Shown: positions 16,454-53,741, numbered from the stretch's first letter. The stretch: DNA of 64,000 bases from a virus (IMGVR_UViG_2576861193_000004:42259-106258); one strand, 5' to 3'. The notes: generated by a model from the sequence alone, not told the origin. A program made the numbers and translations.

Positions 16454-16492
16454 AGATCCCTCTAAAACACACAGAGCGCGTCCATGCGCTCT

Positions 16493-16508
16493 AAAACAAC
16501 TTGTTTAC
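16493..16508. promoter_or_regulatory. motif-1 palindrome (AAACAAnTTGTTT)
   Basis: aaaacaacttgtttac upstream of TerS-like gene. Confidence 0.45.
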
Positions 16509-16518
16509 TGCATCTGCT

Positions 16519-16534
16519 AACCAACTTGTTTTCT
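16519..16534. promoter_or_regulatory. motif-1 palindrome
   Basis: aaccaacttgttttct. Confidence 0.45.
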
Positions 16535-31136: not shown

Positions 31137-31436
31137 TTACCATTGCCAGCACTCTAGCCCTTCAACGACCGGTGCACCACAATCAAAATGTACAGAGTCA
31201 AAGCCTACATCAAGTACTTTCTGAATGTTAGCAATCGCGCCTTCGGATATACCATATCGACGCAAGTCATCTTTCCAGACATCATCCTGTAACCCGGCGT
31301 GGACAATACAACCGCCATCAATTTGTGAAACCCAATCCAGCTCATTGCTTGCGATCATGAATCGGCGAGCATCTTCCTCTGATGTATGAGATGAACTGAT
31401 CAATGCCACCTGGTAGGCTTGGGTAATGTTCAACAT
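31137..31436 (-). CDS. hypothetical protein
   Basis: 99 aa; two motif-1 palindromes upstream (31448-31465, 31497-31514). Confidence 0.3.
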   Translation of the reverse strand: MLNITQAYQVALISSSHTSEEDARRFMIASNELDWVSQIDGGCIVHAGLQDDVWKDDLRRYGISEGAIANIQKVLDVGFDSVHFDCGAPVVEGLECWQW

Positions 31437-31447
31437 TTCAACAACTC

Positions 31448-31465
31448 CGAAACAATTTGTTTTCT
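31448..31465. promoter_or_regulatory. motif-1 palindrome
   Basis: gaaacaatttgttttctt preceded by caactccg. Confidence 0.5.
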
Positions 31466-31496
31466 TATGTGGCTTATTATCTCAATCAACAAAAGG

Positions 31497-31514
31497 TAGA
31501 AAACAAATTGTTTT
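31497..31514. promoter_or_regulatory. motif-1 palindrome
   Basis: agaaaacaaattgtttta; last phage-type signal before metG terminator. Confidence 0.5.
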
Positions 31515-31549
31515 AGGGTTTGTTAAAGTCAGAAGGGGTTGTGTCTATA

Positions 31550-31580
31550 TGAAAATGCCCAGCGTGTTGCCGGGCATTGC
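31550..31580 (-). terminator. putative terminator downstream of metG
   Basis: aatgccc-N11-gggcatt 7-bp stem just after metG stop, followed on minus strand by ttcatat. Confidence 0.35.
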
Positions 31581-31597
31581 GAACAGAGGTTGTTTAA

Positions 31598-33631
31598 TTA
31601 CTTAACCTGGTGGCCTGGTTTAGCACCAGCATCCGGGCTTAACAGGAAGATATCTTTCCCGCCGGGGCCAGCAGCCATCACCATGCCTTCGGAGATACCG
31701 AAGCGCATTTTACGCGGAGCCAGGTTAGCCACCATAATGGTGTGACGACCAATCAGTGCCTGTGGGTCTGGATAAGCAGAACGGATGCCTGAGAAGACAT
31801 TACGCTTTTCACCACCGAGATCCAGTGTCAGACGCAGCAGTTTGTCAGAACCTTCGACAAACTCCGCGTTTTCAATCAGCGCCACACGCAGGTCAACTTT
31901 GGCGAAGTCGTCAAAGGTGATGGTTTCCTGAATCGGGTCGTCAGCCAGTGGGCCAGTTACCGGTGCAGCTGTGGCTTTCACTTCTTCTTTGGATGCTTCC
32001 ACCAGTGCTTCCACCTGTTTCATATCGATACGGTTATACAGTGCCTTGAACGGATTCACTTTATGGCCCAGCAGCGGTTGCTGGATACCATCCCAGGTCA
32101 GTTCTGTATTCAGGAATGCTTCTGCACGTTCAGTCAGTTTCGGCAGTACCGGTTTCAGGTACGTCATCAGCACGCGGAACAGGTTAATGCCCATAGAGCA
32201 AATCGCCTGCAGGTCGGCATCGCGGCCTTCCTGCTTCGCCACCACCCACGGAGCCTGTTCATCAACATAGCGGTTAGCCAGGTCAGCCAGTGACATGATT
32301 TCACGGATAGCTTTGCCAAATTCGCGGCTTTCCCACGCTTCACCAATCACTTCAGCGGCATCAGTGAAGGTTTTGTACAGTTGCGGGTCAGCCAGTTCGC
32401 TTGCCAGCACGCCGTCAAAACGTTTGTTGATAAAACCTGCATTACGGGAGGCCAGGTTAACCACTTTGTTCACGATATCGGCATTCACGCGCTGAACAAA
32501 ATCTTCCAGGTTGAGATCGATATCATCAATGCGCGAAGAGAGTTTCGCAGTGTAGTAGTAACGCAGGCTGTCGGCGTCAAAATGATTCAGCCAGGTGCTG
32601 GCTTTAATAAAGGTGCCGCGAGACTTGGACATCTTCGCGCCGTTCACCGTCACATAGCCGTGAACAAACAGGTTGGTCGGCTTGCGGAAGTTGCTGCCTT
32701 CCAGCATGGCAGGCCAGAACAGGCTGTGGAAGTAAACGATATCTTTACCGATGAAGTGGTACAGCTCGGCGGTGGAGTCTTTCTTCCAGTATTCGTCGAA
32801 GCTGGTAGTGTCGCCGCGTTTGTCGCACAGATTCTTGAAGGAACCCATGTAGCCAATCGGCGCGTCCAGCCAGACGTAGAAATATTTGCCCGGTGCGTTC
32901 GGAATTTCAAAACCGAAGTACGGCGCATCGCGGGAGATATCCCACTGTTGCAGGCCAGATTCAAACCACTCCTGCATTTTGTTTGCCACCTGCTCCTGCA
33001 ACGCACCGCTGCGGGTCCATGCCTGCAACATTTCGCTGAAAGAGGGCAGATCAAAGAAGAAGTGTTCAGAATCACGCATTACCGGCGTAGCGCCAGAAAC
33101 CACCGATTTCGGCTCGATCAATTCAGTCGGGCTATATGTTGCGCCGCAGACTTCACAGTTATCGCCGTATTGATCTGGCGCTTTACATTTAGGACAGGTG
33201 CCTTTTACAAAACGGTCCGGCAGGAACATGCCTTTTTCCGGGTCGTACAACTGAGAGATAGTGCGGTTTTTAATAAAACCGTTCTCTTTCAGGCGAGTAT
33301 AGATAAGCTCAGACAACTGACGGTTCTCTTCGCTGTGCGTCGAGTGATAGTTGTCATAGCTGATGTTAAAGCCTGCGAAATCAGTCTGGTGTTCCTGACT
33401 CATTTCGCCAATCATCTGCTCCGGTGTGATACCAAGCTGCTGTGCTTTCAGCATGATCGGCGTACCGTGGGCATCGTCGGCACAGATGAAATTAACCTCG
33501 TGGCCGCGCATTCGCTGGTAACGAACCCAGACATCAGCCTGGATGTGCTCCAGCATATGGCCGAGGTGGATTGAGCCGTTAGCGTACGGCAGCGCGCACG
33601 TCACCAGAATTTTCTTCGCGACTTGGGTCAT
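31598..33631 (-). CDS. metG: methionine--tRNA ligase
   Basis: Translation from [26 protein letters not shown] (HIGH motif) through KMSKS to C-terminal tRNA-binding domain ending [10 protein letters not shown]; 677 aa from ATG 33631; ORF track N-terminal extension rejected. Confidence 0.95.
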
Positions 33632-33788
33632 AGTAGGCATTACTTCTTTGTAGTGAAAAGGGGCTTGATAGTAACAAAATGGCCTTATGTCTGCCATGTG
33701 ATAACAGCATTTCTCATAAATGATTAAATGTCGTAGCTGGAGTACACTACAAGGCGACAATTGCGCAAATTAAAATAAAGGAGACGGG

Positions 33789-34889
33789 ATGAGCGAGTCC
33801 AAATCGCCGGATGCCCTGAGAGCAATGGTAGCCGGTACGCTGGCTAATTTTCAGCACCCAACCCTGAAACACAACCTGACTACGCTTAAAGCGTTACACC
33901 ATGTTGCGTTGATGGATGACACACTGCATGTCGAACTAATCATGCCTTTCGTGTGGAATAAGCCTTTTGAAGACCTGAAAGAGCAATGTAGTGGTGATCT
34001 GCTCCGTATCACTGGCGCAAAGGCTATTGACTGGAAGCTGTCGTACAACATTGCCACGCTTAAGCGCGTCAAAAACCAACCAGGCATTAATGGCGTTAAG
34101 AACATTATCGCCGTCAGCTCAGGCAAGGGCGGCGTGGGTAAATCCTCCACGGCGGTAAACCTGGCACTGGCGTTGGCTGCTGAAGGTGCGAAAGTTGGTA
34201 TTTTGGATGCCGATATCTATGGTCCATCAATTCCAACCATGCTGGGCGCGGAAAACCAACGTCCAACCTCACCTGACGGTACTCACATGGCACCTATCAT
34301 GTCTCATGGCCTGGCAACCAACTCTATTGGTTATCTGGTCACCGACGACAATGCAATGGTGTGGCGTGGACCGATGGCCAGCAAGGCGCTGATGCAGATG
34401 TTGCAGGAAACTCTATGGCCTGATCTGGACTATCTCGTTCTCGATATGCCGCCGGGCACTGGTGATATTCAGTTGACGCTGGCGCAGAACATTCCTGTAA
34501 CTGGTGCGGTTGTGGTAACTACGCCGCAAGACATCGCGCTGATCGATGCGAAGAAAGGCATTGTGATGTTCGAAAAAGTCGAAGTGCCGGTACTGGGTAT
34601 CGTCGAAAACATGAGTGTGCATATTTGCAGTAACTGCGGTCATCACGAGCCAATTTTTGGCACCGGTGGCGCACAGAAACTGGCCGAGAAATACAACACG
34701 CAGTTGTTAGGCCAAATGCCACTTCATATCTCTCTTCGTGAAGATCTGGATAACGGAACACCAACCGTTATTAGTCGTCCAGATAGCGAATTTACGGCTA
34801 TTTATCGTGACCTCGCAGATCGCGTTGCTGCCCAAATGTATTGGCAAGGTGAAGTAATACCTGGCGAAATCGCATTCCGCGCAGTGTGA
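33789..34889 (+). CDS. apbC: Fe-S cluster carrier ATPase ApbC/Mrp
   Basis: 366 aa; Walker A SGKGGVGKS, CxxC-type motif CSNCGH; divergent from metG with a 157-bp intergenic region as in E. coli. Confidence 0.9.
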   Translation: MSESKSPDALRAMVAGTLANFQHPTLKHNLTTLKALHHVALMDDTLHVELIMPFVWNKPFEDLKEQCSGDLLRITGAKAIDWKLSYNIATLKRVKNQPGINGVKNIIAVSSGKGGVGKSSTAVNLALALAAEGAKVGILDADIYGPSIPTMLGAENQRPTSPDGTHMAPIMSHGLATNSIGYLVTDDNAMVWRGPMASKALMQMLQETLWPDLDYLVLDMPPGTGDIQLTLAQNIPVTGAVVVTTPQDIALIDAKKGIVMFEKVEVPVLGIVENMSVHICSNCGHHEPIFGTGGAQKLAEKYNTQLLGQMPLHISLREDLDNGTPTVISRPDSEFTAIYRDLADRVAAQMYWQGEVIPGEIAFRAV

Positions 34890-34890
34890 T

Positions 34891-34920
34891 AAAAAGGCGG
34901 TGCATTGCACCGCCTAATCA
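34891..34920. terminator. bidirectional hairpin terminator between apbC and the umuD'-like gene
   Basis: aaaaa-ggcggtgca-t-tgcaccgcc; A-run on one side gives a U-run for the minus-strand transcript. Confidence 0.5.
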
Positions 34921-34926
34921 GTTCTC

Positions 34927-35316
34927 CTACATCACGGGACAATCATCAAACTCGCCACTTCTTGCGTCGTTGATAATGTGAGTGATCACACCAAACACGG
35001 CATTGCTGCCCGTGCATCCATCGTCATCCTTTGGCAATGCTTCCTTCTTACCGGTTCTTAAATCCTCCAGATGCTGACGTGGGTACTTCCGGTATCTTTT
35101 TACGCGATATTCCCCATCCAGAGCGCATACAAGCAGAGAACCATCAACCGGGGTAAGTGAGGAATCGACCACCAGCAATGCACCCTGTAATATTCCCTCA
35201 CGATGATGACTATCAGCTGCCCTCATGAAGTAGGTCGCTGAAGGATGTCTAATTATCTGCTGATCAAGAGAAATACGGCTCTCAGCATAATCCGCCGCAG
35301 GAGAAGGGAAGCCCAT
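34927..35316 (-). CDS. umuD: UmuD'-like peptidase S24 protein (P1 HumD-like; encoded without the UmuD N-terminal arm)
   Basis: 129 aa starting MGFPSPAADY, which matches UmuD just after its autocleavage region; LexA box 20 bp upstream. Confidence 0.75.
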   Translation of the reverse strand: MGFPSPAADYAESRISLDQQIIRHPSATYFMRAADSHHREGILQGALLVVDSSLTPVDGSLLVCALDGEYRVKRYRKYPRQHLEDLRTGKKEALPKDDDGCTGSNAVFGVITHIINDARSGEFDDCPVM

Positions 35317-35414: not shown

Positions 35415-35678
35415 TTATTTTTTGGCTATATCTTCTTTCTGATATACCGGATCGTTTCCTTTTGGCAGCAGGAGGCTTAACTGCCGGTAGTGCCGTAGCC
35501 GTTCCATGAAATAGGTGCGCAGGTTCTCAGGTTGCTCACGGGCTACCTGTTCCGCTATGACGGGTATGTTCAATCGCTCTTTGTAGGCAACCCCCCTGGC
35601 AGCCAGGTCAACGTTAACTTTATTCCTTTCTTCCTGGCTTTTAGCTGCTATGTTCCATTCGTTCATATTAAATCCCAT
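35415..35678 (-). CDS. holE: DNA polymerase III theta subunit homolog (P1 Hot-like)
   Basis: [42 protein letters not shown] closely parallels E. coli theta [42 protein letters not shown]; true start may be the internal MNEWNIAAK. Confidence 0.65.
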
Positions 35679-36804: not shown

Positions 36805-38367
36805 ATGAAAATGACAAGTATTCAACAACGTGCAGAGCTTCATCGTCAAATCTGGCAAATTGCTAACGATGTCAGGGGTTCGGTCGATGGATGGGATTTT
36901 AAGCAATACGTTCTGGGCGCACTTTTCTACCGTTTTATCAGCGAAAATTTTTCCAGTTATATTGAAGCCGGTGATGACAGTATCTGTTATGCGAAACTGG
37001 ATGACAGCGTAATTACTGATGACATTAAAGACGATGCCATCAAAACTAAAGGCTACTTCATCTACCCCAGTCAGCTTTTCTGCAACGTAGCTGCGAAAGC
37101 AAATACTAATGACAGACTGAATGCAGATTTAAACAGCATCTTCGTTGCTATCGAAAGTTCTGCTTACGGTTATCCTTCAGAAGCAGACATCAAAGGTTTG
37201 TTTGCTGATTTCGATACCACCAGTAACCGCCTGGGTAACACCGTTAAAGATAAAAATGCCCGCCTGGCTGCGGTTCTGAAAGGGGTTGAAGGGTTAAAAC
37301 TTGGTGACTTCAACGAACATCAGATTGACCTGTTCGGTGATGCCTATGAGTTCCTGATTTCTAACTATGCGGCAAATGCCGGTAAGTCAGGCGGTGAGTT
37401 CTTTACACCGCAGCACGTCTCCAGGCTGATTGCACAACTGGCAATGCATGGCCAGACCCACGTTAACAAAATCTACGACCCGGCAGCGGGTTCCGGCTCA
37501 CTGTTGTTGCAGGCGAAAAAACAGTTTGATAACCACATCATCGAAGAAGGCTTTTTCGGTCAGGAAATCAACCATACGACCTATAACCTGGCGCGTATGA
37601 ACATGTTTTTGCACAATATCAACTACGACAAGTTTGATATCAAGCTGGGTAATACACTGACTGAGCCGCACTTCAGAGATGAAAAACCGTTTGACGCCAT
37701 CGTATCTAACCCACCGTATTCGGTGAAATGGATTGGCAGCGATGACCCGACGCTGATTAACGATGAGCGTTTTGCCCCGGCTGGCGTTCTGGCCCCCAAA
37801 TCCAAAGCTGACTTTGCGTTTGTATTACATGCACTGAACTATCTTTCTGCCAAAGGTCGTGCTGCGATTGTCTGCTTCCCGGGTATTTTTTACCGTGGCG
37901 GCGCGGAGCAGAAAATCCGTCAGTATCTGGTCGATAATAACTATGTCGAAACCGTGATTTCACTGGCACCGAACCTGTTCTTTGGCACCACCATTGCAGT
38001 AAACATTCTGGTGCTGTCTAAACATAAAACGGATACCAACGTTCAGTTTATTGACGCCAGCGAACTGTTCAAAAAAGAGACTAACAACAATATCCTGACC
38101 GATGCCCATATCGAACAGATTATGCAGGTATTTGCCAGCAAGGAAGATGTTGCTCATCTGGCGAAATCTGTCACGTTTGAGACCGTTGTCGCGAATGACT
38201 ATAACCTGTCGGTAAGCAGCTATGTGGAAGCGAAAGATACTCGCGAAATTATCGATATCGCTGAGTTGAATGCAGAACTGAAAACCACGGTCAGCAAAAT
38301 CGACCAGTTGCGTAAAGATATTGATGCGATTGTGGCTGAAATTGAAGGCTGCGAGGTGCAGAAATGA
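36805..38367 (+). CDS. hsdM: Type I restriction-modification methyltransferase subunit
   Basis: 520 aa; AdoMet motif [10 protein letters not shown], catalytic NPPY (VSNPPYS); start of next gene overlaps stop by 4 nt. Confidence 0.95.
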
Positions 38368-39599
38368 GCGAGTTGAGTTATCTGGAAAAATTGCTGGATG
38401 GGGTTGAGGTTGAGTGGTTGCCATTGGGGAAACTAGGTGAATTAGTTCGTGGAAATGGATTGCCTAAGTCTGATTTTACCGAATCTGGGGTTCCTGCCAT
38501 ACACTATGGTCAGATATATACTTTTTACGGATTATCTACTGAAACAACAAAGTCATTTGTTTCCCATGAAACGGCGAAGAAGCTTAAAAAGGTTAACTCT
38601 GGTGATGTTGTTATTACTAACACAAGCGAAAATTTTACTGATGTTGGTAAGGCGCTTGTTTATCTAGGTAAAGAGCAAGCTGTTACTGGTGGCCATGCAA
38701 CTATTTTCAAGCCAAATAGCACTATTATTGGGAAATACTTTGCCTATTTCACGCAAACGGATTCTTTTGCAAATGAGAAAAGGAAATACTCCAAGGGAAC
38801 TAAAGTAATTGATGTGTCTGCATCGGATATGGCGAAAATTATTATCCCTATCCCCTGTCCGGAAAATCCCAAAAAATCCCTTGCTATCCAGTCTGAAATC
38901 GTTCGGATTCTGGACAAATTTACTGCACTTACCGCTGAGCTTACCGCTGAGCTTACCATGCGTAAAAAACAGTACAACTACTATCGCGACCAATTGCTGA
39001 GTTTTAAAGAAGGTGAGGTTGAGTGGAAAACTTTGGGAGAAGTGGCTCAATACTCGAAAACAAGAATTAGTTTCGAACTACTTGATGAAAGGAATTATGT
39101 TGGCGTAGATAATCTGCTGCAAAACAGAGCAGGAAAATCATTATCTAATCATGTACCCACATCAGGTAAATTAACGGAGTTTATACCTAACGATATACTG
39201 ATTGGGAATATCCGCCCATATTTGAAAAAAATTTGGCAAGCAGATTGTATCGGTGGAACAAATGGCGATGTATTGGTTATTCGTTGCATAGATAGCTCAA
39301 TAAATACCAGATATCTATATCAGATTTTGGCAGATGACAAATTCTTTGAATACAACATGCAGCATGCTAAAGGAGCAAAAATGCCGCGTGGCAGTAAAGA
39401 GGATATAATGAAATACCCAATCCCTGTACCGCCACTCACCTTGCAAGCTCGCATTGTCGAAATACTCAACAAATTCGATACCCTGACAAACTCCATCACT
39501 GAAGGTCTTCCGCGTGAAATCGAATTACGCCAGAAACAATACGAATACTACCGTGATTTACTGTTCAGTTTCCCAAAACCTGAAACTGTCAGTAATTAA
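38364..39599 (+). CDS. hsdS: Type I restriction-modification specificity subunit
   Basis: 411 aa; conserved N-terminal, central ([42 protein letters not shown]) and C-terminal ([35 protein letters not shown]) regions separating two variable target-recognition domains. Confidence 0.9.
38931..38954 (+). repeat. tandem 12-bp repeat (ACCGCTGAGCTT x2) encoding TAEL-TAEL in the HsdS central spacer
   Basis: accgctgagctt accgctgagctt read directly in sequence. Confidence 0.8.
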
Positions 39600-39720
39600 T
39601 TGACCATTGCTACCGACCGGGCCACCTTAACACCCGGTCTGTATATAGACTATTTTTTACGCGCCGGAAGTCACTCTTAACGCCCTTCCGGCCCTTGCCA
39701 GGCGGCACAAAGGATGCGCT

Positions 39721-42700
39721 ATGACTCATCAAACACACACCATTGCTGAATCCAATAACTTTATCGTCCTTGATAAGTACATCAAAGCTGAGCAAACAAG
39801 CGACAGCTACCAGAGCGAATCGGACCTGGAACGTGAACTGATTCAGGACCTGCGGAATCAGGGTTATGAATTTATTTCCGTAAAATCACAGTCGGCAATG
39901 CTGTCCAATGTTCGGGAACAGCTTCAGAGCCTCAATGGTGTGATGTTTAATGACAGCGAGTGGCGGCGCTTCACGGAGCAGTATCTGGACAATCCCAGCG
40001 ATGGTATTCTGGATAAGACCCGTAAAATCCATATCGACTATATCTGCGACTTTATTTTTGACGACGGGCGTCTTGAGAACATCTATCTGATCGATAAAAA
40101 GAATCTCATGCGCAACAAAGTGCAGATTATCCAGCAGTTTGAACAGGCAGGTTCTCATGCTAACCGTTATGACGTCACGATCCTGGTTAATGGCTTGCCT
40201 CTGGTGCAAATCGAACTGAAAAAGCGCGGCGTGGCGATTCGTGAGGCTTTCAACCAGATACATCGTTACAGCAAAGAGAGTTTTAACAGCGAAAATTCCC
40301 TGTTTAAGTATCTGCAACTGTTTGTCATTTCTAACGGCACCGATACCCGTTATTTTGCCAACACCACAAAGCGCGATAAAAACAGTTTTGACTTCACCAT
40401 GAACTGGGCGAAATCAGACAACACGCTGATTAAAGACCTCAAAGACTTTACCGCTACCTTTTTCCAGAAACATACCCTGCTTAATGTTCTGGTGAACTAC
40501 AGCGTGTTTGACAGTAGTCAGACGCTACTGGTGATGCGACCGTACCAGATTGCAGCTACCGAACGGATCTTATGGAAAATCAACAGCTCCTATAAAGCGA
40601 AAAACTGGTCTAACCCCGAAAGCGGTGGCTTTATCTGGCACACCACTGGTTCCGGTAAAACACTGACCAGCTTTAAAGCCGCGCGTCTGGCAACTGAACT
40701 GGACTTTATTGATAAAGTCTTCTTCGTGGTCGACAGGAAAGACCTCGATTACCAGACCATGAAGGAATATCAGCGTTTTTCGCCAGACAGCGTCAACGGC
40801 TCGGAAAATACCGCAGGTCTTAAACGAAATCTGGATAAGGACGATAACAAAATTATCGTCACCACTATTCAGAAACTTAATAACCTGATGAAAGCAGAAA
40901 GCGACCTGCCTGTATACAATCAGCAAGTGGTGTTTATATTTGATGAATGCCACCGCAGCCAGTTTGGAGAAGCGCAGAAAAACCTGAAGAAGAAATTCAA
41001 ACGCTATTATCAGTTTGGTTTTACCGGCACCCCTATTTTCCCGGAAAATGCCTTAGGCTCAGAAACGACCGCCAGCGTATTTGGTCGTGAATTGCATTCG
41101 TATGTAATTACCGATGCGATTCGTGACGAAAAAGTGCTCAAATTCAAGGTGGACTACAACGATGTGCGGCCACAGTTTAAGTCTTTAGAGACAGAAACTG
41201 ACGAGAAAAAACTGAGTGCGGCTGAAAATCAGCAGGCGTTTCTTCATCCCATGCGTATTCAGGAAATCACGCAATATATCCTGAACAACTTCCGCCAGAA
41301 GACTCACCGTACTTACCCCGGCTCCAAAGGTTTTAATGCCATGCTGGCAGTAAGCAGCGTGGATGCCGCGAAAGCCTATTACGCGACGTTTAAACGGTTA
41401 CAAGAGGAAGCCGCTAATAAATCTGCTACCTATAAACCACTGCGTGTTGCGACAATCTTCTCCTTTGCCGCCAATGAAGAACAAAATGCCATTGGTGAAA
41501 TTTCCGATGAAACTTTTGATACCAGCGCAATGGACAGCAGTGCTAAAGAGTTTCTTGACGCTGCAATTCGTGAGTATAACAGCTATTTTAAAACTAACTT
41601 CAGCACCGACAGTAACGGTTTTCAGAACTACTATCGTGATTTAGCCCAACGGGTTAAAAATCAGGATATCGATCTGTTAATTGTCGTTGGGATGTTTTTA
41701 ACCGGCTTCGACGCTCCAACATTGAACACGCTATTCGTCGATAAAAACTTGCGTTTTCACGGCCTGATGCAGGCATTCTCCCGTACCAACCGCATTTATG
41801 ACGCTACTAAAACCTTCGGTAACATCGTCACTTTTCGGGATCTGGAACGCTCAACCATTGATGCCATAACGCTGTTTGGTGATAAAAATACTAAAAATGT
41901 GGTGTTAGAAAAGAGTTATGCAGAGTATATGGAAGGCTTTACTGATGCTGCTACAGGTGAAGCTAAACGCGGCTTTATGGCAGTAGTTTCAGAACTGGAA
42001 CAACGGTTCCCTGACCCTGCCAGTATTGAAAGTGAAAAAGAGAAGAAAGACTTCGTTAAACTGTTTGGCGAATACCTGCGTGCCGAGAACATCCTGCAAA
42101 ACTATGATGAATTTGCCACGCTGAAAGCCCTGCAACAAATCGATCTTAGCGATCCTGTTGCGGTAGAAAAATTCAAAGAAGAACATTATGTGGATGATGA
42201 AAAGTTCGCTGAATTGCAAACGATTCGTCTCCCTGCTGAACGCAAGATTCAGGATTATCGTTCTGCCTATAACGATATTCGTGACTGGCAGCGCCGCGAG
42301 AAAGAAGCTGATAAAAAAGAAAAATCAACCACTGACTGGGATGACGTGGTTTTTGAGGTCGATTTGCTGAAGTCTCAGGAAATAAACCTGGATTATATCC
42401 TTGGACTGATTTTCGAACACAACAGACAAAATAAAGGCAAGGGCGAAATGATCGAAGAGGTCAAACGCTTAATTCGTTCAAGCCTGGGGAACCGGGCGAA
42501 AGAGGGCCTGGTGGTCGATTTTATTCAGCAAACGAACCTGGATGATTTACCAGACAAAGCCAGCATCATTGACGCGTTCTTTACCTTTGCTCAACACGAA
42601 CAGCTACGTGAAGCAGAAGCGTTGATTAAAGAAGAAAATCTCAATGAAGAGGCGGCGAAACGCTATATTCGCACGTCTTTAAAACGCGAATACGCCACCG

Positions 42701-42837
42701 AAAATGGCACAGAATTAAACGAGACATTACCAAAACTTAGTCCGTTAAACCCGCAATATAAAACGAAAAAACAGACGGTTTTCCAGAAAATCGTCACGTT
42801 TATTGAAAAGTTCAAAGGAGTAGGTGGGCAGATATAG
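39721..42837 (+). CDS. hsdR: Type I restriction enzyme R subunit
   Basis: 1038 aa; helicase motifs [12 protein letters not shown] ([11 protein letters not shown]), endonuclease-type N-terminal region; 120-bp gap after hsdS with no intervening gene. Confidence 0.95.
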
Positions 42838-46019: not shown

Positions 46020-46514
46020 TTAGTCACAACATGATCCTGAGTAACTGGATGAACTTGAGGTATCGCATCCACCGTCATCCCATCCAGAGTGACAGGACGC
46101 TCTACTGTAGTGGTGGTAATTGTCGTCGACGGAGGTGTGGTGATGGATGAATCCGGCATCAAAAGGCTCTGACCGGCTGGTACGGTAATCGCTGCCAGAG
46201 TTGCCAAAATCACTCCGTAGGCCATTGGCTTCAGTCGATTTCGTTGAAAATTTTCCATGAGAACTGTCCTTGTGTGTCCGGGTTTCACGCAACACACGAG
46301 AAGCGACGCTATTACGCACCTTCTCCATGCCTACTGTCGTGCCCAGATTAGCTATGGCGGTAGCTTGCGCATTAATGCGCTTCTCCAGTTCAAACACTCG
46401 TTCTTCCAGTTCCGTAAGGCGTGCGGAAACACGACCACTAAACAGCTCGGTCAGCACCAGGCGAATTGAACGGGGACGTTTATTGAAAGAAGTGAAAGAC
46501 GTTTGACGGGCCAT
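46020..46514 (-). CDS. hypothetical protein; C-terminal half overlaps an alternative-frame ORF (46007-46258) so the true end is uncertain
   Basis: N-terminal 80 aa look protein-like (coiled-coil LTELEERVFELEKRINAQATAIANL); C-terminal half is low-complexity; the other frame encodes a hydrophobic N-terminus then a Pro/Thr-rich segment. Confidence 0.25.
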   Translation of the reverse strand: MARQTSFTSFNKRPRSIRLVLTELFSGRVSARLTELEERVFELEKRINAQATAIANLGTTVGMEKVRNSVASRVLRETRTHKDSSHGKFSTKSTEANGLRSDFGNSGSDYRTSRSEPFDAGFIHHHTSVDDNYHHYSRASCHSGWDDGGCDTSSSSSYSGSCCD

Positions 46515-46656
46515 GTGGATTCCATTCAGTGTCAGAAAGAGTTGCGGCTGGCCAAGCCAGCCGCCTTTTGGCGTTCCATCCTGGAACCGTACCTAACCGG
46601 TACTTCGTCATCCTGACGATTTATAAGATACCTGATTTATTATAGTGGGTAAATAC

Positions 46657-47265
46657 TTACTTATCTTTTTGTGACAAAAACCCAATGTCATGCTTGTGAG
46701 GCATATCAGCTGCGGAATAGGCGGCGATCTTCGCCAGACGGTCACACATTTCGTTCTCGCGATGACCTGCATGGCCTTTAACCCACTTCCAGCGGACATT
46801 ATGACGACTGGCGGCCGCGTCGAGACGTTTCCAGAGATCCACGTTTTTGACTGGCTTCTTCTCAGACGTGATCCATCCGTTACGCTTCCAGCCTTTCATC
46901 CAGAGCGTCATGCCGTTTTTAAGATACTGGCTGTCGGAATGCAGGATCACGTTGCAGGGGTACTTCAGACGCTCCAGCGCAATCAGGGCGCCCATCATCT
47001 CCATCCGATTGTTGGTCGTGCTGTGAAAGCCCTCAGAAAGCTCGCGCTCTTCGCCTCGATACTGGAGAACGATGCCGTAACCGCCCGGCCCGCCCGGATT
47101 TTTGAGGCAAGAGCCATCACTGAATACTTTTACGGTTTTGAGCTGGGGATTGAACTCGACTACGGGGGTTTTGAAGTTGGTACGGGATTGCTGGTGGGTT
47201 TGGTATCTGGCTTTGGACTTCGTGCGGCAGCCAGTATGTTGCCGGGCTGGGGTCTTGGTCGTCAT
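46657..47265 (-). CDS. rnhA: ribonuclease HI
   Basis: Core [58 protein letters not shown] parallels E. coli RnhA; start set at MTTKT. Confidence 0.8.
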
Positions 47266-47843
47266 TTTGGCTCCAGAATCGCGCGCCGCGACGATTTTTT
47301 TTTCCCTCGCGCGTGTGCGCACGCGTGCGTGTAAATATTAAAAATTTTTTAGAAAAGAAAAATTACTTCCCAGAACAGGTTTTAATAAAACCTGAACTGA
47401 ACGAACGAAGTGAGTGAAGTTCACCTCGAACGAAGTGAGAGGTTGTCTTTTCAGGTAATACTCTCCCAGGGAGGTGAGTACAAAATTACCTCACCAACCT
47501 GGTCGTTTCATAACCTGAAAAGTTATGACCTAAGTCTACTGCCAGCTTAGGCTTGGGAAGTTATGGATGACAGCACCCCAGAACCGAGATCTTCCCACAC
47601 TTTATGAAGGGGAGTACTGGATTCAACCTCTCGAAACACTCCAGACTCGACAATCATAAAGTGACCCTTCTCTCTGCCCACTTTGGTTCCCCCTTCCCCA
47701 ACCCCTAAACGGTGCCGGTTCTACGCTGGTAGTGAGCTTTTTTAAACCTGACGCCAGTGACGCTATCCCCCACCCATCAGGTCGAGCTGCCAAAAGTATC
47801 CGGAAGCGGATAGATTGTATCACTGGTTAGTGGTGTTTTGAAT

Positions 47844-47858
47844 GGTAAGTACTTACAT
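47844..47858. promoter_or_regulatory. motif-2 palindrome
   Basis: ggtaagtacttacat (perfect GTAAGTACTTAC palindrome). Confidence 0.45.
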
Positions 47859-47859
47859 A

Positions 47860-48090
47860 TTATATTGATTGATTAATTTCTCGCCCATGAAGCTGGACGT
47901 TCAGGGCAAACACCTCATTGATGAGTTCCCCTAACAGCTGCTCCACCAGCTCTTTGTGCTCGCCTGAATGAAGACATTTGAGCGACCATTCGTAGAGACT
48001 GAAAGCCTTATCGCGATCTTTCATCATGTCGCGCACTGTGGCCAGAAAATCGCTCTCAACGAGCGCTACGACGTTCGTCGGGTATACCAT
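47860..48090 (-). CDS. hypothetical small protein
   Basis: 76 aa ORF; motif-2 palindrome near 47844-47858. Confidence 0.25.
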   Translation of the reverse strand: MVYPTNVVALVESDFLATVRDMMKDRDKAFSLYEWSLKCLHSGEHKELVEQLLGELINEVFALNVQLHGREINQSI

Positions 48091-48292
48091 GATAGTTTTC
48101 CTTACTGTGGTTCATAAAATCGATTCTAGAGCGTCTGGAGAGGGGCTCCAGTAGGTTCTGAAGGTGTAAAACGGTCTGGGAGTTGTTTGGAAATCACGTC
48201 TTAAAAAGCCTGCGTCTGTATATATTAATAATTAGTACTTAGTTATTTATATATACGGAAGCAGGTTCTCAAACTAACTCCCAGACTGGTGT

Positions 48293-48886
48293 TTACGCTG
48301 CCTTTTTACGTGGTCTCTTCTTCCTGACAACATTGGCAGGGTCATAACCAACCAGCTTTTTCATCACCGCCAGCGGTATTTTACTGATGGTGTGCCCAGC
48401 TTCCTGACAGTAGCCACGGAAGATAAGCAACATGCTGCCACCAGGGTTGATGTCTACTTCCACCAGCCCAAGTTCAACATCCGGCTCAACAAATGCCACG
48501 CGGCCACCTGACAAGATGACTGTTTCGTTTGCGCACTCAGCCGCACGCTCATACCACCGCGTATCGAGGGATTGTGGTATCAGCATGATCGTCGTCACTC
48601 CACGCGTCTGCTCGCGAATGGCCGCTTCTATCCAGGGGGTGATTTTGGAGTAAGGCGGGTTAAGGAACGCCACAGTGCCAGGTTCTCCCCAACTGCACTT
48701 GAGCGCATCACGCTCAACACCGATAAAGTTCGGCAGGAGAGCATTATCTTTGTTGCAGGCGACGTCCACATCGAACTTTACGCCTATGTAACGTTGGATG
48801 GCGACAAACAACCACTGCGGTGTGCGCCAAAGGTCGCGAAGAGAGGCATCACGCTCTCGCTTTTTGATTTTTTCGGCTGCGATCAT
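48293..48886 (-). CDS. phage-type DNA N6-adenine methyltransferase (Dam-like, orphan)
   Basis: 197 aa; WRTPQWLF N-terminus and catalytic NPPYS motif; no adjacent restriction gene. Confidence 0.7.
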   Translation of the reverse strand: MIAAEKIKKRERDASLRDLWRTPQWLFVAIQRYIGVKFDVDVACNKDNALLPNFIGVERDALKCSWGEPGTVAFLNPPYSKITPWIEAAIREQTRGVTTIMLIPQSLDTRWYERAAECANETVILSGGRVAFVEPDVELGLVEVDINPGGSMLLIFRGYCQEAGHTISKIPLAVMKKLVGYDPANVVRKKRPRKKAA

Positions 48887-48896
48887 TACTTTACTC

Positions 48897-48921
48897 TGAT
48901 AGGTAAATACTTACCTATTTT
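48897..48921. promoter_or_regulatory. motif-2 palindrome
   Basis: tgataggtaaatacttacctatttt: perfect ATAGGTAA-ATAC-TTACCTAT, 10 bp upstream of Dam-like gene. Confidence 0.5.
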
Positions 48922-49041
48922 TTCATTTAATCCAACGGATAGCAAACAAAGAAGAACGCGCCAGATTCGCAAACGGGAAGCTCTCTGGCGCGTTTTATCG
49001 ATGCTGGGTATGCAATGAGCTTACCCAGCGTCCTAAAGCTC

Positions 49042-49914
49042 TCAGGGTGCTTTAGATCGCGCAGAGGAACATTGTTCAATGGAATACTCCGCTATGAATT
49101 TTTTGACGATCGGCGACTCTTTATTAAGCGTTAGATTTCCACCTTCTCTGGTGGCAATGCCTGTGGCCGGAAACACAGCCATCATCTGGCCAGCCTGAGT
49201 CGAAGCCGTGTTAAGTGGATATGGTTTCTCCGGGTAGCTCATTAGCGCCAGTTTAATGCTATTGCTGGTCGCCGTGTTCGTATCAAGAATATGGCGCATT
49301 GCGATTACCGTGTAGACGCTGATTTCCGGGCCACCACTAAACCAGTTCAGGAGGTTTAAGATTTTGTCTTTCGCTTTGACCGGCGCGCCTTCAAATGCGG
49401 CAGTAAAGCGCTCACTATCCAGACCGGCTGTCACATAGAACGATTCATCCTTACCCTCCAGCGTGAAGCGAGGTTTGGTCGGCGCACGCTTTGATTGTGC
49501 CTTCTGGTGTTTTGGCTGCTCTTCTTCAGGTTTAGGCCCAGACTCCACTGAAGGTAAAAGCGTTGGAGCTATATCGGTGGTCTCAGCGCTTCGAGCATCA
49601 AGTTCAGGTGTTGGCTCGTCCACTATCTCCGCAATAGGGCCACGCTCTGGCACCTCGACCTTCACCGATTCGTGTGCAATCTCAAGCTCTTCCAGAACGC
49701 CACTCAGATCGCCGGTAGAGCTGACATTCATGACTTCATCTGCCACCGCCTCGACTGGTTTTGCGATTGCATCATCCAGACCAGAAAGAAGATCGTCGAT
49801 CTCGTCGACACCGCTCATTTTCGCAGCTTTCTGAACCGGTTCTTCGAGAGATTGCAGCATTGCAGTCAATTCATCCAGGTCATCGTTTTTAACAATGTTT
49901 GAAACTGCGCTCAT
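49042..49914 (-). CDS. hypothetical protein
   Basis: Start set at MSAVSNIVKN; acidic/Pro-rich middle region. Confidence 0.3.
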   Translation of the reverse strand: MSAVSNIVKNDDLDELTAMLQSLEEPVQKAAKMSGVDEIDDLLSGLDDAIAKPVEAVADEVMNVSSTGDLSGVLEELEIAHESVKVEVPERGPIAEIVDEPTPELDARSAETTDIAPTLLPSVESGPKPEEEQPKHQKAQSKRAPTKPRFTLEGKDESFYVTAGLDSERFTAAFEGAPVKAKDKILNLLNWFSGGPEISVYTVIAMRHILDTNTATSNSIKLALMSYPEKPYPLNTASTQAGQMMAVFPATGIATREGGNLTLNKESPIVKKFIAEYSIEQCSSARSKAP

Positions 49915-50042
49915 TTTTAACTCCTTATGTTTTCGTTGGTGCATTTCCGCGTTTTGGTTGAGCTTATTCTGGCAAAACCTATCAGGCAGAAAAGTCATAA
50001 CTACAGGCAGTTAAAGGAACTGGAGGCAAAGAAAAAGCGCCA

Positions 50043-50597
50043 TCAGGCGCTTTCGAATGGGAGTTTGAAGAAGCCGTATTTCTCTCGGGCTTTGAAGAAA
50101 CACTGCATCATCAGATCAGTATCGTAGAGAGCACTGTGGGCTTTCTCACGGTCGTAAGTGAACCCAAGTGAGAATGCCAGCTCTTCCAGGCGTGGGCGCT
50201 TCCCATCCTCGGTAGCCCACAGGGAAAATAGAGTGTCAACCAGAGGGATTTCTGGCAATTTCACTCCATAGCTTCCGAACTCGTGGCGAATGAACGGAAG
50301 GTCAAAAGCCTCCCCGTTATGGGCGACTAACGCGCTACATGCCCCCATATATGCAGCAATCTTACCTGCGTGATCAGCCAACAGCGGTTCAGCAGCCAGT
50401 TCTTCCAGAGAGATACCATGTACAGCCTGCGCCTTCGGATCGATGCTACGACGCGGGTTGAAGCGCATCTCAAGGCTGTCAATGCGCTTCTGGGTTTCCA
50501 GTTCATAACGAGATATCGCGATTTCGATAATTTTGTGGCCGGATGTGAAGTCCAGCCCCGTGGACTCAATATCGACGCCACCGACAATCGTGGTCAT
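50043..50597 (-). CDS. DnaQ-like 3'-5' exonuclease (DEDDh)
   Basis: Exo I GVDIESTGLD, Exo II AHNGEAFDLPF, Exo III HSALYDTD. Confidence 0.7.
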   Translation of the reverse strand: MTTIVGGVDIESTGLDFTSGHKIIEIAISRYELETQKRIDSLEMRFNPRRSIDPKAQAVHGISLEELAAEPLLADHAGKIAAYMGACSALVAHNGEAFDLPFIRHEFGSYGVKLPEIPLVDTLFSLWATEDGKRPRLEELAFSLGFTYDREKAHSALYDTDLMMQCFFKAREKYGFFKLPFESA

Positions 50598-50606
50598 TGG
50601 TACTCC

Positions 50607-51041
50607 TTACAGCTTCTTCGCGCCTTTCAGCAGTGCGCCACGCACAAACTGAGCAGCCTTTTTTAGTGCGTCCTCGCCGCTTTCGCAGACGACCGGCTCA
50701 CGCCATTCGCCCGTTGACGTGTTGAGGAGCTGGATTTGGTTAGTCTCCAGGCAAACGGACACATACAAAACCGTACCGCCCGAGAGTTTGAGATGCATAG
50801 GAAACAGAGAGCGCTTGGTGCCGCCATTGAATTGCGACATCGCCGCATTAATGGCTTCACCAACCTCTTCCCCAACAAGACCTTGAACGGACTCAAACAC
50901 TGCTCGGATAGCCAGACGTGCTTCACGTTCACTCATTAAGGAACGGGATTGTTCGTCAGCAATACGGATCAGTGCTTCAATCGCTTTGCGATCTAATTCA
51001 TCCGACAGGGGAAGTTCATCTATCATTCTGTTTTTCCTCAA
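50607..51041 (-). CDS. hypothetical protein
   Basis: 144 aa ORF. Confidence 0.3.
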   Translation of the reverse strand: MRKNRMIDELPLSDELDRKAIEALIRIADEQSRSLMSEREARLAIRAVFESVQGLVGEEVGEAINAAMSQFNGGTKRSLFPMHLKLSGGTVLYVSVCLETNQIQLLNTSTGEWREPVVCESGEDALKKAAQFVRGALLKGAKKL

Positions 51042-51089
51042 TTCATTTCGCGTGTCTTATTGTCACACTGCCCAACAGGGGAACAACAT

Positions 51090-51734
51090 TCAGTGGAAGG
51101 TCACTCGTCCTGTTATACGGCTCTCGATGTTTTCAGTGGCTCTTTCCAGCACACGCAATACCGATCTGGCTCGCGCCTCAACCGTGCGGCACTTTTCAGA
51201 GATAATGAAAACCTGCAAATCGCCGGTATGGGGAAGGGCACTAATTTTCGTCAGCTCGCCACACATAAGTGCATCGATGCGAGCAACATAGAGACGGTCA
51301 AGCGATCCTCGCTGGGGACGCGCGAGATCTTTGCCGGAAAGATCAACGCCCGGGCGAAGACCCGCTATAGCATTAAAGTTGGAAATGGCCGCTTTGTGGC
51401 AAAACTGCTCAATGTCGAGAGCCAGCTCGATGCAGCGGTCTTCGTTGGTCTGGCCGACCAGGTCAAGCGTATAAGCCATGACATCGGCTGGCGTGCGGTC
51501 GATGACAAAACCTTCAACGCCGCGGGTGATCATCTCGATGTGTCTGGCAATCTCCATCTGAACCTGAAGACGCTCGTAAAGGGGCAAACGCTCGCCAACC
51601 TTCACCCCCAGACTGCTCATCAGCTTGCCAACACCGGCATCCACATACGGAATGCCATAGTGCGCATCGATGTACCTTGCCAGGGTTGTTTTCCCACTGC
51701 CCTGTGCGCCAGTGATTCCAATCCGGTAATCCAT
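51090..51734 (-). CDS. P-loop nucleotide kinase-like protein (dNMP kinase-like)
   Basis: Walker A IGITGAQGSGKTTL; 214 aa; sits in nucleotide-metabolism cluster. Confidence 0.45.
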   Translation of the reverse strand: MDYRIGITGAQGSGKTTLARYIDAHYGIPYVDAGVGKLMSSLGVKVGERLPLYERLQVQMEIARHIEMITRGVEGFVIDRTPADVMAYTLDLVGQTNEDRCIELALDIEQFCHKAAISNFNAIAGLRPGVDLSGKDLARPQRGSLDRLYVARIDALMCGELTKISALPHTGDLQVFIISEKCRTVEARARSVLRVLERATENIESRITGRVTFH

Positions 51735-52620: not shown

Positions 52621-52621
52621 A

Positions 52622-53737: not shown

Positions 53738-53741
53738 ACAA

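Follow-up and report, generated by a model that had tools for sequence, protein, structure and literature searches.

The window, a stretch of 64,000 nucleotides from a virus (IMGVR_UViG_2576861193_000004:42259-106258), carries two host-type genes, metG and apbC, in divergent orientation on either side of a 157-bp spacer. The metG gene (positions 31598-33631, minus strand) is a second copy of the gene for methionyl-tRNA synthetase (MetRS) and encodes a full-length protein of 677 amino acids, which matched the NCBIfam equivalog NF001100 with 1019 bits (cutoff 587). The coding sequence was taken from its ATG, and a 720-amino-acid open reading frame starting from a TTG and extending to 33760 was discarded as an over-extension. 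We retrieved the Pfam domains tRNA-synt_1g (residues 8-397), Anticodon_3 (416-540) and, at the C-terminus, tRNA_bind (581-674), which is involved in dimerisation, together with matches to the E. coli MetRS structures 1F4L, 1QQT and 1P7P (E = 0). From its sequence, we assign the protein to the class I aminoacyl-tRNA synthetases (aaRS), gamma-proteobacterial dimeric type. The signature motifs HLGH (residue 22) and KMSKS (residue 333), the zinc knuckles CPKC (146) and CEVC (159), and W461 of the anticodon domain (within an intact QAPWV) are all present. Compared with E. coli K-12, the gene is 93.9% identical at the nucleotide level and the protein differs at 9 of its 677 residues (98.7% identity), all conservative changes located outside the signature motifs. 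Only S112T, S151A and V276T are fixed in the lineage of the window copy, and the other phage-plasmid lineage described below does not have them. With this level of identity to the K-12 enzyme and a dN/dS of about 0.01, the MetRS of the element is predicted to be functional in aminoacylation.

Some alleles of metG confer high persistence, namely metG83/87, delta-ETIT and metG630 (G263S/S264F, a deletion of residues 569-572 and a C-terminal truncation); these are reduced-function alleles, and knocking down metG also raises persistence (PMC11004401). We considered the copy of the element as a candidate allele of this kind and rejected it, as YMGSFK (containing G263-S264) and IQETITFD (containing ETIT569-572) are intact and the protein has its full 677 residues. 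Naively, one would expect additional wild-type MetRS to act in the direction opposite to the persistence alleles.

The apbC gene (also named mrp; 33789-34889, plus strand) encodes an Fe-S cluster carrier P-loop ATPase of 366 amino acids (NCBIfam equivalog NF008669, 759 bits, cutoff 348). It carries the deviant Walker A motif GKGGVGKS at residue 112 and the CXXC motif CSNC at residue 280, as expected of NUBPL-type P-loop ATPases, and both motifs are intact in the two phage-plasmid lineages. Despite a dS of about 1.5 between the gene of the element and that of K-12, the proteins differ at only 20 residues, none of which falls in the ATPase core (residues 90-298). The N-terminus is shortened in a manner specific to phage-plasmids. 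The corresponding protein of the phage-plasmid Cyrano is annotated as "MinD", and the one paper listing it gives a septum-site protein. The phage-plasmid literature consulted for this analysis contained no discussion of the role of apbC on the element.

The spacer between the two genes (33632-33788), which is their putative divergent promoter region, was aligned directly with the 131-bp spacer of K-12. It resembles E. coli only in the ~47 bp next to metG, including a -10-like hexamer (TACTAT), and over positions 33639-33770 it is closer to C. werkmanii (identity 0.71) than to K-12 (0.48). Downstream of metG, we identified an intrinsic terminator (31549-31578, minus strand, with a hairpin at 31554-31578) composed of a 10-bp GC-rich stem followed by a U-run, with a predicted fold of -20.1 kcal/mol over 71 nt (z -5.25). 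This terminator is phage-plasmid-specific: it is common to both lineages and unrelated to the chromosomal terminator found in K-12, E1V33 and Citrobacter. On the other side of the block, a GC-rich hairpin (34895-34915) located between apbC and the next gene, humD, was detected by a terminator scan on the minus strand with its T-run (folds of -17.5 and -18.6 kcal/mol, z -4.4 and -4.7). It is a terminator of humD, and could possibly stop transcription in both directions.

Past the terminator of metG lies an early gene of the DUF5983 family (31137-31436, minus strand, Pfam E-value 7.5e-11). In tblastn searches it was 43% identical to SSU5_105, of which it is a homologue, and 98-99% identical to its counterparts in Cyrano and PhiR41_1. 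This gene is a conserved phage-plasmid neighbour of metG that also adjoins it in a second deep lineage (L088-L091). Upstream of it, two palindromic operator-like motifs (31448-31464 and 31499-31515, GAAAACAAATTGTTTT-like) form an inverted repeat, I1, conserved in L085 and L089; they are the motifs nearest to metG, ~35-40 bp from its terminator hairpin. In the whole window the motif occurs at ~12 sites (21 strand matches for 1.6 expected from shuffled sequences), a count that rests on one motif reconstructed in this analysis. All sites lie at 16.5-31.5 kb and 45.0-45.8 kb, with none between 31.6 and 42.9 kb and none in the metG-apbC spacer.

To the right, humD (UmuD'-like; 34927-35316, minus strand; NCBIfam HumD equivalog, 220 bits, cutoff 120) ends 37 bp past the apbC stop codon (34927 against 34889) and belongs to a P1-type accessory module. 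It is followed by hot, a homologue of the theta subunit of DNA polymerase III (35415-35678, minus strand; Pfam DNA_pol3_theta, E-value 2.7e-31; NCBIfam PRK10969, 97.4 bits). A type I restriction-modification module then occupies 36805-42837 on the plus strand (hsdM 36805-38367, hsdS 38364-39599, hsdR 39721-42837); it was recognised from its open reading frames and from the collinear plasmid L001, where the M, S and R genes are annotated (96-98% identity). This module is variable cargo, and Cyrano, SSU5 and Esc24 have other genes in its place. The original prediction had described this layout from the sequence, and it is confirmed: the identities, coordinates and spacing of metG and apbC, the phage early genes on the left and the humD-hot pair on the right, and the presence of the motif in both arms and its absence in between, here for a single reconstructed motif. 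The label "P1-like" given to the right flank is right for the humD-hot module only (~83% nucleotide identity to P1); the backbone is SSU5-like and not P1-like.

Homology to bacterial chromosomes spans only the interval from the metG stop codon (31597/8) to ~4 nt before the apbC stop codon (34885-90), and the native neighbours yehE and yehF are indeed replaced. We found no transposon-like direct or inverted repeats flanking the metG-apbC block. Compared against databases, the 7-kb region matched closed circular plasmids of 101-116 kb over its full length with 97-98.6% identity, and these plasmids encode capsid, portal, terminase, ParB, nrdAB, thyA and DHFR. The complete set of genes for siphovirus structure and packaging (capsid, portal, large terminase and tail) was recognised in the window through its match to L001, which is 98.8% identical over 10.5-22.5 kb and is annotated with a major capsid protein, a portal and a large terminase. 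ParB-family genes are present in the collinear part, and RepA and the replicon type rep_cluster_488 are known from relatives, repA itself not having been located in the window. The early region is syntenic with that of SSU5, and Cyrano itself is 81% identical to SSU5 over 65% coverage (PMC9928086). The element also carries copies of several housekeeping-type genes (nrdA, nrdB, thyA, a dfrA51-type DHFR gene, rnhA and hot). The 64-kb window contained no tRNA gene, and its 30-43.5 kb part no Rfam family.

In order to assess the distribution of the block, we searched 5426 complete E. coli genomes. Using the portal and terminase as queries yielded 245 places on 237 plasmids and none on a chromosome. 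The same block with the same junctions was present on 219 plasmids, equal to about 92% of those with this portal type, and was absent from every chromosome. Carriers represent ~4% of the genomes and come from humans, livestock and the environment. Identity to the window copy of metG ranged from 93.2 to 94.3% for chromosomal copies and from 95 to 99% for plasmid copies, so that the two ranges do not overlap. A metG match was found in all 5426 genomes, with 5424 places being chromosomal, and carriers therefore keep their chromosomal gene. In PLSDB, ~202 plasmids of 105-115 kb from E. coli, E. albertii, E. marmotae and Shigella have the block, as do four deposited phage genomes with both junctions, including Cyrano (pLF82). 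A subgroup from E. coli whose portal is 82% identical has no metG-apbC in the slot. In some relatives, der, encoding a ribosome-assembly GTPase, directly follows apbC. A Klebsiella record labelled as a 232-kb plasmid with metG-apbC is not an independent capture but mislabelled chromosomal DNA, with yehUT and yehZYXW as neighbours.

Full-length plasmid matches, a portal and terminase found only on plasmids, RepA and rep_cluster_488 in relatives and the virions of Cyrano, which has the same block, together identify the element as a phage-plasmid. We thus read the window, with a probability of about 0.8, as a stretch of an E. coli phage-plasmid of the SSU5 supergroup, a temperate siphovirus maintained as a low-copy circular plasmid of ~110 kb, in which metG-apbC is an old and selectively maintained cargo. 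This cargo occupies a slot immediately next to the conserved DUF5983 gene, in the part of the early region that varies. Among the explanations originally put forward, cargo captured by a phage-plasmid is the one that the plasmid matches bear out, along with the proposed circular, plasmid-sized replicon and the additional metG copy. The phage-host-phage order, unusual for an integrated prophage, had also raised the ideas of prophage remnants on either side of a chromosomal metG-apbC locus and of an assembly chimera of chromosome and phage contigs, both of which are excluded by identical junctions in more than 200 independent closed plasmid assemblies and four phage records, separate identity ranges for chromosomal and plasmid metG, no chromosomal place for portal or terminase, chromosomal homology that ends at the two stop codons and a terminator that is not chromosomal.

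We then compared the copies carried by phage-plasmids. For both genes, dS reaches 0.24-0.29 with a dN/dS of 0.005-0.026 (0.005-0.018 for metG, ~0.015 for apbC), and none of the copies examined has a frameshift or a premature stop. On the element, both genes therefore remain intact and evolve under strong purifying selection. The apbC gene is conserved at least as strongly as metG, and is better expressed. The notion that the block is host DNA picked up by accident and still to be lost would fit with the weak transcription of metG in one lysogen. It is very improbable in view of such dN/dS values accumulated within the element lineage, of the retention of intact genes in two lineages whose apbC copies are separated by a dS of ~1.7, and of the share of plasmids with this portal type that carry the block.

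Phage-plasmid copies were monophyletic for metG and for apbC (bootstrap 1.0 in each case). In the second deep lineage (L088-L091), DUF5983 and metG meet at an identical junction and metG ends in the same terminator; its ApbC has the shortened N-terminus as well as 7 shared derived residues at sites that are invariant in five chromosomal species. The shared junction, terminator and derived ApbC residues in two deep lineages show a single ancient capture from an Escherichia-like chromosome, trimmed to the two coding sequences and their spacer. In a scan of genome contigs we found no closer chromosomal donor than Escherichia (metG 93-94%, apbC about 82%), apbC being as far from E. coli as another genus would be. 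A search of ApbC in a set of 5.8 billion proteins, clustered at 90% identity, was for that reason uninformative on the donor.

The two genes appear to have discordant histories, with an Escherichia-like, mosaic metG and a highly diverged apbC. The metG/apbC dS ratio is at most 0.2 between phage-plasmids and chromosomes, for 0.5-0.67 between chromosomes, and L089 is 96.9% identical to K-12 in metG and 73% in apbC. Sites of metG that group L089 with the window copy are clustered at 705-1350 and 1962-2031 (runs test, p = 0.006), and the old divergence is kept in the last 74 nt of metG and in the distal spacer. GC3 goes down to 0.53 and 0.43 in apbC and is still 0.61 in metG. The mosaic would be most simply explained by gene conversion from host chromosomes, a case built with few chromosomal Escherichia references (K-12 and E1V33); stronger selection on codon usage in metG could account for part of its lower dS. 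Between the window and L001, 50 differences in metG were considered as a candidate chromosomal conversion and rejected, as the tract also covers the DUF5983 gene and hence points to an exchange between phage-plasmids.

In Cyrano lysogens, apbC (CYRAN_99) is transcribed 9-fold above the prophage background and listed as a moron, and metG (CYRAN_100) reaches log2(fpkm+5) values of 4.16/3.85 in LB and ~3 in other conditions, the floor being 2.32 (PMC9928086). A large effect of MetRS dosage in the average cell is doubtful given this weak transcript. With terminators on both sides and no operator motif inside the block, metG-apbC would correspond to an insulated, moron-like cassette; however, a consensus scan made no promoter call in the spacer. 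A phage-plasmid metG was described as altering growth-state heterogeneity and raising antimicrobial survival in Shigella sonnei (Tam et al., as cited in PMC12452169). This cargo is real and already reported on such elements, in connection with antibiotic survival in Shigella; our analysis adds selection on both genes, a single ancient capture, discordant histories of metG and apbC, and a wild-type-like MetRS.

Plasmid-borne second aaRS genes are established resistance determinants. It had been suggested that the additional MetRS might buffer the cell against synthetase inhibitors or toxins, in other words that it is a resistant or decoy enzyme facing an inhibitor of MetRS or a toxin targeting MetRS or tRNA-Met, comparable to plasmid-borne MupA or to self-immunity synthetases. 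An extra enzyme could indeed titrate an inhibitor. The part of the suggestion that requires a resistant enzyme is not supported, since the few differences from K-12 are conservative and leave the HIGH and KMSKS motifs, the zinc knuckles and W461 unchanged, while known resistance synthetases are strongly divergent. The "exception" models for MupA/MupB scored 33 bits (cutoff 1900) and the protein falls in the ordinary equivalog instead. As this explanation also leaves the conserved apbC unaccounted for, we regard it as improbable. The enzyme being essentially wild type, only a dosage effect is plausible, and a phenotype would have to stem from dosage or heterogeneity rather than from a resistant or crippled synthetase.

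The block may otherwise belong with the nrdAB, thyA, DHFR, RNase H and theta homologue genes of the element as auxiliary genes of the lytic cycle, with the extra MetRS and ApbC acting mainly after induction to ease the dependence on host supply, MetRS contributing capacity for translation initiation and elongation. The many housekeeping-type copies on the element speak for it, as do the presence of der after apbC in some relatives and the low transcription of metG in the Cyrano lysogen, which would fit a gene that matters at the induced copy number. We consider it rather unlikely as the main role, because terminators insulate the block and the operator-like motifs that mark the early genes next to it are missing from it, apbC transcripts are already present in the lysogen before induction, and the published phenotype, as related in the citing paper, concerns the lysogen.

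We favour a cargo serving the lysogen. The block was captured once, trimmed and provided with a terminator of its own, and strong purifying selection has acted on both proteins as it passed down the phage-plasmid lineage. As a moron-type cassette, bounded by terminators, equipped with a promoter region and devoid of operator motifs, it would not need the phage programme for its expression in the lysogen. The host would gain an additional MetRS, essentially wild type, together with an additional ApbC, in doses that would track the copy number of the phage-plasmid (5.5 per cell in Cyrano, and more on induction). Over time, apbC would have evolved independently, and metG would have been repeatedly overwritten by host metG through homologous recombination, keeping the enzyme matched to the host tRNAs. 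A tentative extension, which we hold to be possible without favouring it, gives the two genes different roles, with an ancient, independent and better-expressed apbC, a metG kept host-matched by recurrent conversion, and a slot beside DUF5983 that would be a hot spot recruiting spare essential translation genes, such as der. If true, this family of phage-plasmids would carry a "dosage module" for translation and Fe-S metabolism that shifts the growth state of the host, possibly through effects on lag, tolerance and homocysteine-thiolactone signalling, and the reported effect of metG would be only part of it. The spread of an additional gene for an essential translation enzyme by an infectious mobile element is medically relevant, the cited work connecting metG on phage-plasmids to antimicrobial survival in epidemic S. 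sonnei. The apbC gene needs to be considered separately from metG. In surveillance, the apparent exchange of metG between phage-plasmids and chromosomes also has a bearing on how reads are mapped, copy numbers called and alleles typed.

Finally, we compared the locus with known systems. Viral genomes that encode a MetRS are found among giant viruses and some jumbo phages, which carry aaRS genes; the copy described here differs in being recent-looking and host-matched, in a temperate phage-plasmid, with no tRNA gene near it in the window. MupA/IleRS2 is likewise a second aaRS gene on a mobile element, but it is highly divergent and insensitive to its inhibitor, unlike the host-identical active site of the element MetRS. 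Like prophage morons, the block would be a self-contained unit, set between terminators around a putative promoter region, free of operator motifs and with apbC transcribed in the lysogen (Cyrano); unlike them, it duplicates essential or core housekeeping genes and not a toxin, defence or surface-modification gene. SSU5/pHCM2, the prototype of the supergroup, has the same backbone organisation, with the DUF1380/DUF5983 pair (SSU5_104/105) at the equivalent position, but no metG-apbC; its slot is filled by genes such as ydfZ and those for an LprI-family protein and an HD phosphohydrolase, and the same applies to the E. coli subgroup with the 82%-identical portal. Cyrano (pLF82, from the AIEC strain LF82; OV696614) has metG-apbC-humD and DUF5983 in the same order with ~97.6% identity and its MetRS is annotated; in contrast with the window, it lacks hot and hsdMSR and has DUF4942 and Ea22-type genes. 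Cyrano is a demonstrated phage-plasmid inducible by ciprofloxacin, whose virions were detected by qPCR of encapsidated DNA and electron microscopy, no sensitive host having been found for infectivity (PMC9928086). PhiR41_1 was deposited as a phage with K-12 MG1655 as its host. The pWPMR2-type phage-plasmids of the SSU5 supergroup in S. sonnei and E. coli match the window in kind and in their metG cargo, as far as they are described through citations of Tam et al. (2024 preprint, medRxiv 10.1101/2024.10.27.24316207) in PMC12452169 and bioRxiv 10.1101/2025.09.12.675607. We found the same apbC-humD junction in the 109-kb S. sonnei plasmid pMHMC-002 (NZ_CP053753.1), 98.2% identical across the half of the block that aligns there; the other end of this circular record gave a second match, and its replicon type is that of the E. 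coli relatives, rep_cluster_488. The block of pWPMR2 itself is probably the same. As the window carries a type I restriction-modification module and no defence system is reported to have been detected in pWPMR2-like elements, it probably belongs to a neighbouring clade.

From the ORF list and direct reading of the sequence, we confirmed the predicted arrangement, in which metG (31598-33631, minus strand, ATG start at 33631; 677 aa, N-terminus MTQVAKK exactly as in K-12) and apbC (mrp; 33789-34889, plus strand) diverge around a 157-bp spacer, with an early gene on the left and P1-like humD and hot on the right. A TTG-extended metG ORF reaching 33760 was discarded as an artefact of mechanical ORF calling. 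Both MetRS and ApbC were assigned to equivalog families far over the cutoffs (Pfam, NCBIfam), and solved E. coli MetRS structures matched the window MetRS with E = 0. Left of metG lies a DUF5983 gene (31137-31436, minus strand) with two palindromic motifs in front of it. Several relatives carry a DUF1380 gene (SSU5_104 homologue) between these two genes (L085:5599-5841 and L094:2049-2291), which is absent at 31437-31597 of the window and likewise from L001 (the E. coli plasmid p2018-11-1BCC_2, our best match) and from the pLF82 phage Cyrano (OV696614). On the right, humD lies 37 bp past the apbC stop and is followed by hot, both ~83% identical to P1, and then by a type I R-M operon (36805-42837) that is missing whole from Cyrano, Esc24 and SSU5. 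About 1 kb inside its hsdS gene (38418-39491) could not be aligned to L001, the rest of the operon being 96-98% identical, which suggests a target-recognition domain swap.

Host-type genes between two phage-like arms had been ascribed to cargo capture by a phage-plasmid, to a chromosomal island or to an assembly chimera. The 7 kb around the metG-apbC block gave full-length matches (97-98.6%) to closed circular plasmids from E. coli, 101-116 kb in size, and positions 10.5-46.3 kb of the window are collinear with L001 at 96-99% identity. The annotation of L001 includes major capsid, portal, large terminase and ParB-family proteins, as well as a UvsW-like helicase, RNase H, Dam, DHFR (dfrA51), ThyA and NrdAB. 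Across 5426 complete E. coli genomes, the portal/terminase segment was retrieved from 237 plasmid records and 0 chromosomes. Four phage genomes on deposit carry the block too, namely Cyrano, CMS-2020a (two records) and PhiR41_1; Cyrano is pLF82 of the AIEC strain LF82, an SSU5-like phage-plasmid that makes virions, is kept at 5.5 copies per cell and responds to ciprofloxacin with 39-fold induction (PMC9928086). The circular plasmid matches, the plasmid-only portal/terminase segment and the phage records together establish the first explanation. The island and the chimera are excluded by the disjoint identity ranges of metG in the same genomes: relative to the window copy, identity is 95-99% for metG on plasmids and 93.2-94.3% for each of the 5420 chromosomal genes. 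A metG match was found in 5426 of 5426 genomes, 5424 of the places being chromosomal, so that the phage-plasmid metG is a second copy in its carriers. Three PLSDB records matching metG-apbC (OW969824.1, CP148755.1 and NZ_OL790696.1) are mislabelled chromosomes or chromosome fragments on which the native neighbours yehUT and yehZYXW are present; such "plasmid" records can inflate counts of plasmid-borne metG. In the right arm, positions 46405-54882 are the counterpart of the L001 segment running from RNase H to DHFR/ThyA, at just 75-78% identity, against 96-99% in the left 36 kb, which indicates a backbone that is a mosaic of distinct phage-plasmid lineages.

Homology to bacterial chromosomes runs from the metG stop to ~4 nt short of the apbC stop and no further, and no transposon-like repeats were found flanking the block. 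The metG terminator (31554-31578, z = -5.25) is unrelated to the chromosomal one and common to every phage-plasmid copy examined. Compared with K-12, metG of the window is 93.9% identical (9 conservative amino-acid changes, dS ~0.3) and apbC 82% (20 amino-acid changes, dS ~1.5), the latter divergence equalling or exceeding that of E. coli from Citrobacter or Salmonella (dS 1.2-1.35); by identity, the distal spacer does not resemble that of E. coli either. In NJ trees of both genes the phage-plasmid copies formed a single clade (bootstrap 1.0) with Escherichia as its sister group, and the stem was long for apbC only. A protein search retrieved a second deep lineage from E. coli assemblies (L088-L091), having the DUF5983-metG-apbC order and the metG terminator of the window, an apbC 73% identical to K-12 and 77% to the window copy (GC3 0.43), and a metG 96.9% identical to K-12. 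Both lineages share the shortened ApbC N-terminus MS[ED]SKSP, and at sites that do not vary among five chromosomal species they have 7 derived residues in common, which argues for a single ancient capture of the block; at such positions the window ApbC has 0 unshared derived residues. These second-lineage sequences are TPA assemblies (e.g. DAFUVE010000025.1; block at L089:5387-9101) whose ApbC has 57 private substitutions at otherwise invariant sites, and their right-hand cargo comprises a BOF-domain protein, hok/gef, a CCP_MauG cytochrome c peroxidase, cytochrome b562 and an IS605-family OrfB.

The two genes have discordant histories. Between chromosomes, dS of metG relative to that of apbC is 0.5-0.67; the same ratio is ~0.2 in the window/K-12 and L089/window pairs and <0.1 in the L089/K-12 pair, in a comparison covering two Escherichia chromosomes. 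Window-like sites in the L089 metG cluster at 705-1350 and 1962-2031, the remainder being K-12-like (runs test p = 0.006), and the final 74 nt of metG are 85-87% identical to K-12. The simplest reading of these patterns is that the metG interior was overwritten by chromosomal alleles via homologous recombination, apbC being too diverged to recombine and having drifted toward the lower GC of the element; codon-usage selection on metG may contribute to the dS pattern. Differences between the window and L001 fall in a 31.1-33.2 kb tract, with nearly none across 33.2-37.1 kb, a distribution indicating that recombination between phage-plasmids occurs too. In three phage-plasmids, one from E. coli and two from E. 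marmotae, der directly follows apbC and replaces humD (L086:9699-11171, NZ_CP148383.1; L094:6001-7473, E. marmotae NZ_CP072690.1; equivalent to ~34.9 kb of the window). Its product is EngA, an essential ribosome-assembly GTPase, and at ~91% identity to E. coli chromosomal der it represents a second translation-related core gene captured at this position.

Evolution on the element alone was assessed by comparing phage-plasmid copies among themselves, yielding dS of at most 0.24 (metG) and 0.29 (apbC) with dN/dS of 0.005-0.026; for apbC, the comparison of one deep lineage with the other gives a dN of 0.11 and a saturated dS. MetRS retains HLGH, KMSKS, both zinc knuckles, W461, and G263-S264 and ETIT569-572, the positions changed in high-persistence metG alleles (PMC11004401). 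S112T, S151A and V276T are the sole changes fixed in the window-type lineage and are absent from the other. ApbC retains Walker A and CXXC, and 0 of its 20 differences from K-12 fall within residues 90-298. Given these motifs and the purifying dN/dS, both proteins are almost certainly active, and the phage-plasmid MetRS is almost certainly functionally wild type.

We scanned the window with the motif GAAAACAAATTGTTTT, reconstructed here from palindromes, allowing up to 3 mismatches. This yielded ~12 sites against 1.6 expected, confined to 16.5-31.5 kb or 45.0-45.8 kb, and 0 sites in 31.6-42.9 kb; the gap predicted for two motif families thus holds for the one family scored, with sites on both sides. 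Palindromes of the AAACAA-N-TTGTTT type lie at 16492-16533, 24099, 26490, 27254, 28157, 28642, 29835, 31448, 31499, 45022 and 45751, in most cases preceding small early ORFs that read leftward, and the one beside metG is conserved in both deep lineages. The palindrome probably serves as the operator for a phage-plasmid regulator.

The block is bounded by terminators, and the operator-like motif seen around neighbouring early genes is absent from it. Among the morons listed for Cyrano is the orthologue of apbC (wrongly annotated there as a septum-site protein), expressed 9-fold above prophage background; metG is weakly transcribed (log2(fpkm+5) of 4.16/3.85 in LB and ~3 elsewhere, floor 2.32), and humD is SOS-inducible (PMC9928086). 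This insulation and transcription point to a block that is probably a lysogenic-conversion cassette. In LF82 transcriptomes, CYRAN_98 (humD; 34927-35316 in the window) rises from log2 ~7 in LB to ~12 inside macrophages (PMC9928086, S1 Table), which fits SOS control of this gene immediately adjoining apbC. The main rival, a role in the lytic cycle, draws on the nucleotide-metabolism genes that the element carries alongside the block. The original suggestion, a second copy that buffers toxins or synthetase inhibitors, is disfavoured as a resistant-enzyme role by the near identity of this MetRS to that of the host. As a lysogenic-conversion cassette, the block would give the lysogen second copies of ApbC and of a host-matched MetRS, at doses tracking element copy number, and its output would be raised antimicrobial survival via population heterogeneity, as reported in the preprint of Tam et al. 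(medRxiv 10.1101/2024.10.27.24316207) in the summary given by PMC12452169. Persistence alleles and knock-down of metG work through lowered MetRS function (PMC11004401), and a survival route from extra wild-type MetRS is not evident from sequence. Candidate routes would be tRNA-Met sequestration by surplus MetRS, expression bursts in cells with amplified copy number, or changed output of homocysteine thiolactone, a MetRS editing product that shortens lag via SdiA (PMC13463772).

Phage-plasmid metG cargo is already described: as summarised in PMC12452169, the same preprint reports multiple, variable metG copies on a phage-plasmid of MDR S. sonnei, whose expression generates a subset of cells prone to acquiring resistance to cephalosporins. 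A survey assigns that phage-plasmid, pWPMR2, to the SSU5 supergroup and reports it from S. sonnei and E. coli CC131, CC23 and CC73 (bioRxiv 10.1101/2025.09.12.675607). An S. sonnei plasmid in PLSDB has the apbC-humD junction of the window, 98.2% identical across the half of the block that aligns, and a second match at the opposite end of the circular record. New here is the analysis of block evolution (boundaries, divergence, second lineage, overwriting), and its value lies in the discordance of metG and apbC, in the occasional addition of der, and in apbC, neglected yet strongly conserved and better expressed. SSU5, the supergroup prototype, and an E. coli subgroup with an 82% identical portal have the same backbone as the window element but differ in the cargo at the block position, where ydfZ, an LprI-family gene, an HD-domain gene and DUF4942 are found. 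By this comparison, the host-type genes occupy a variable accessory slot in the early region of a phage-plasmid, a simple explanation of the phage-host-phage order.
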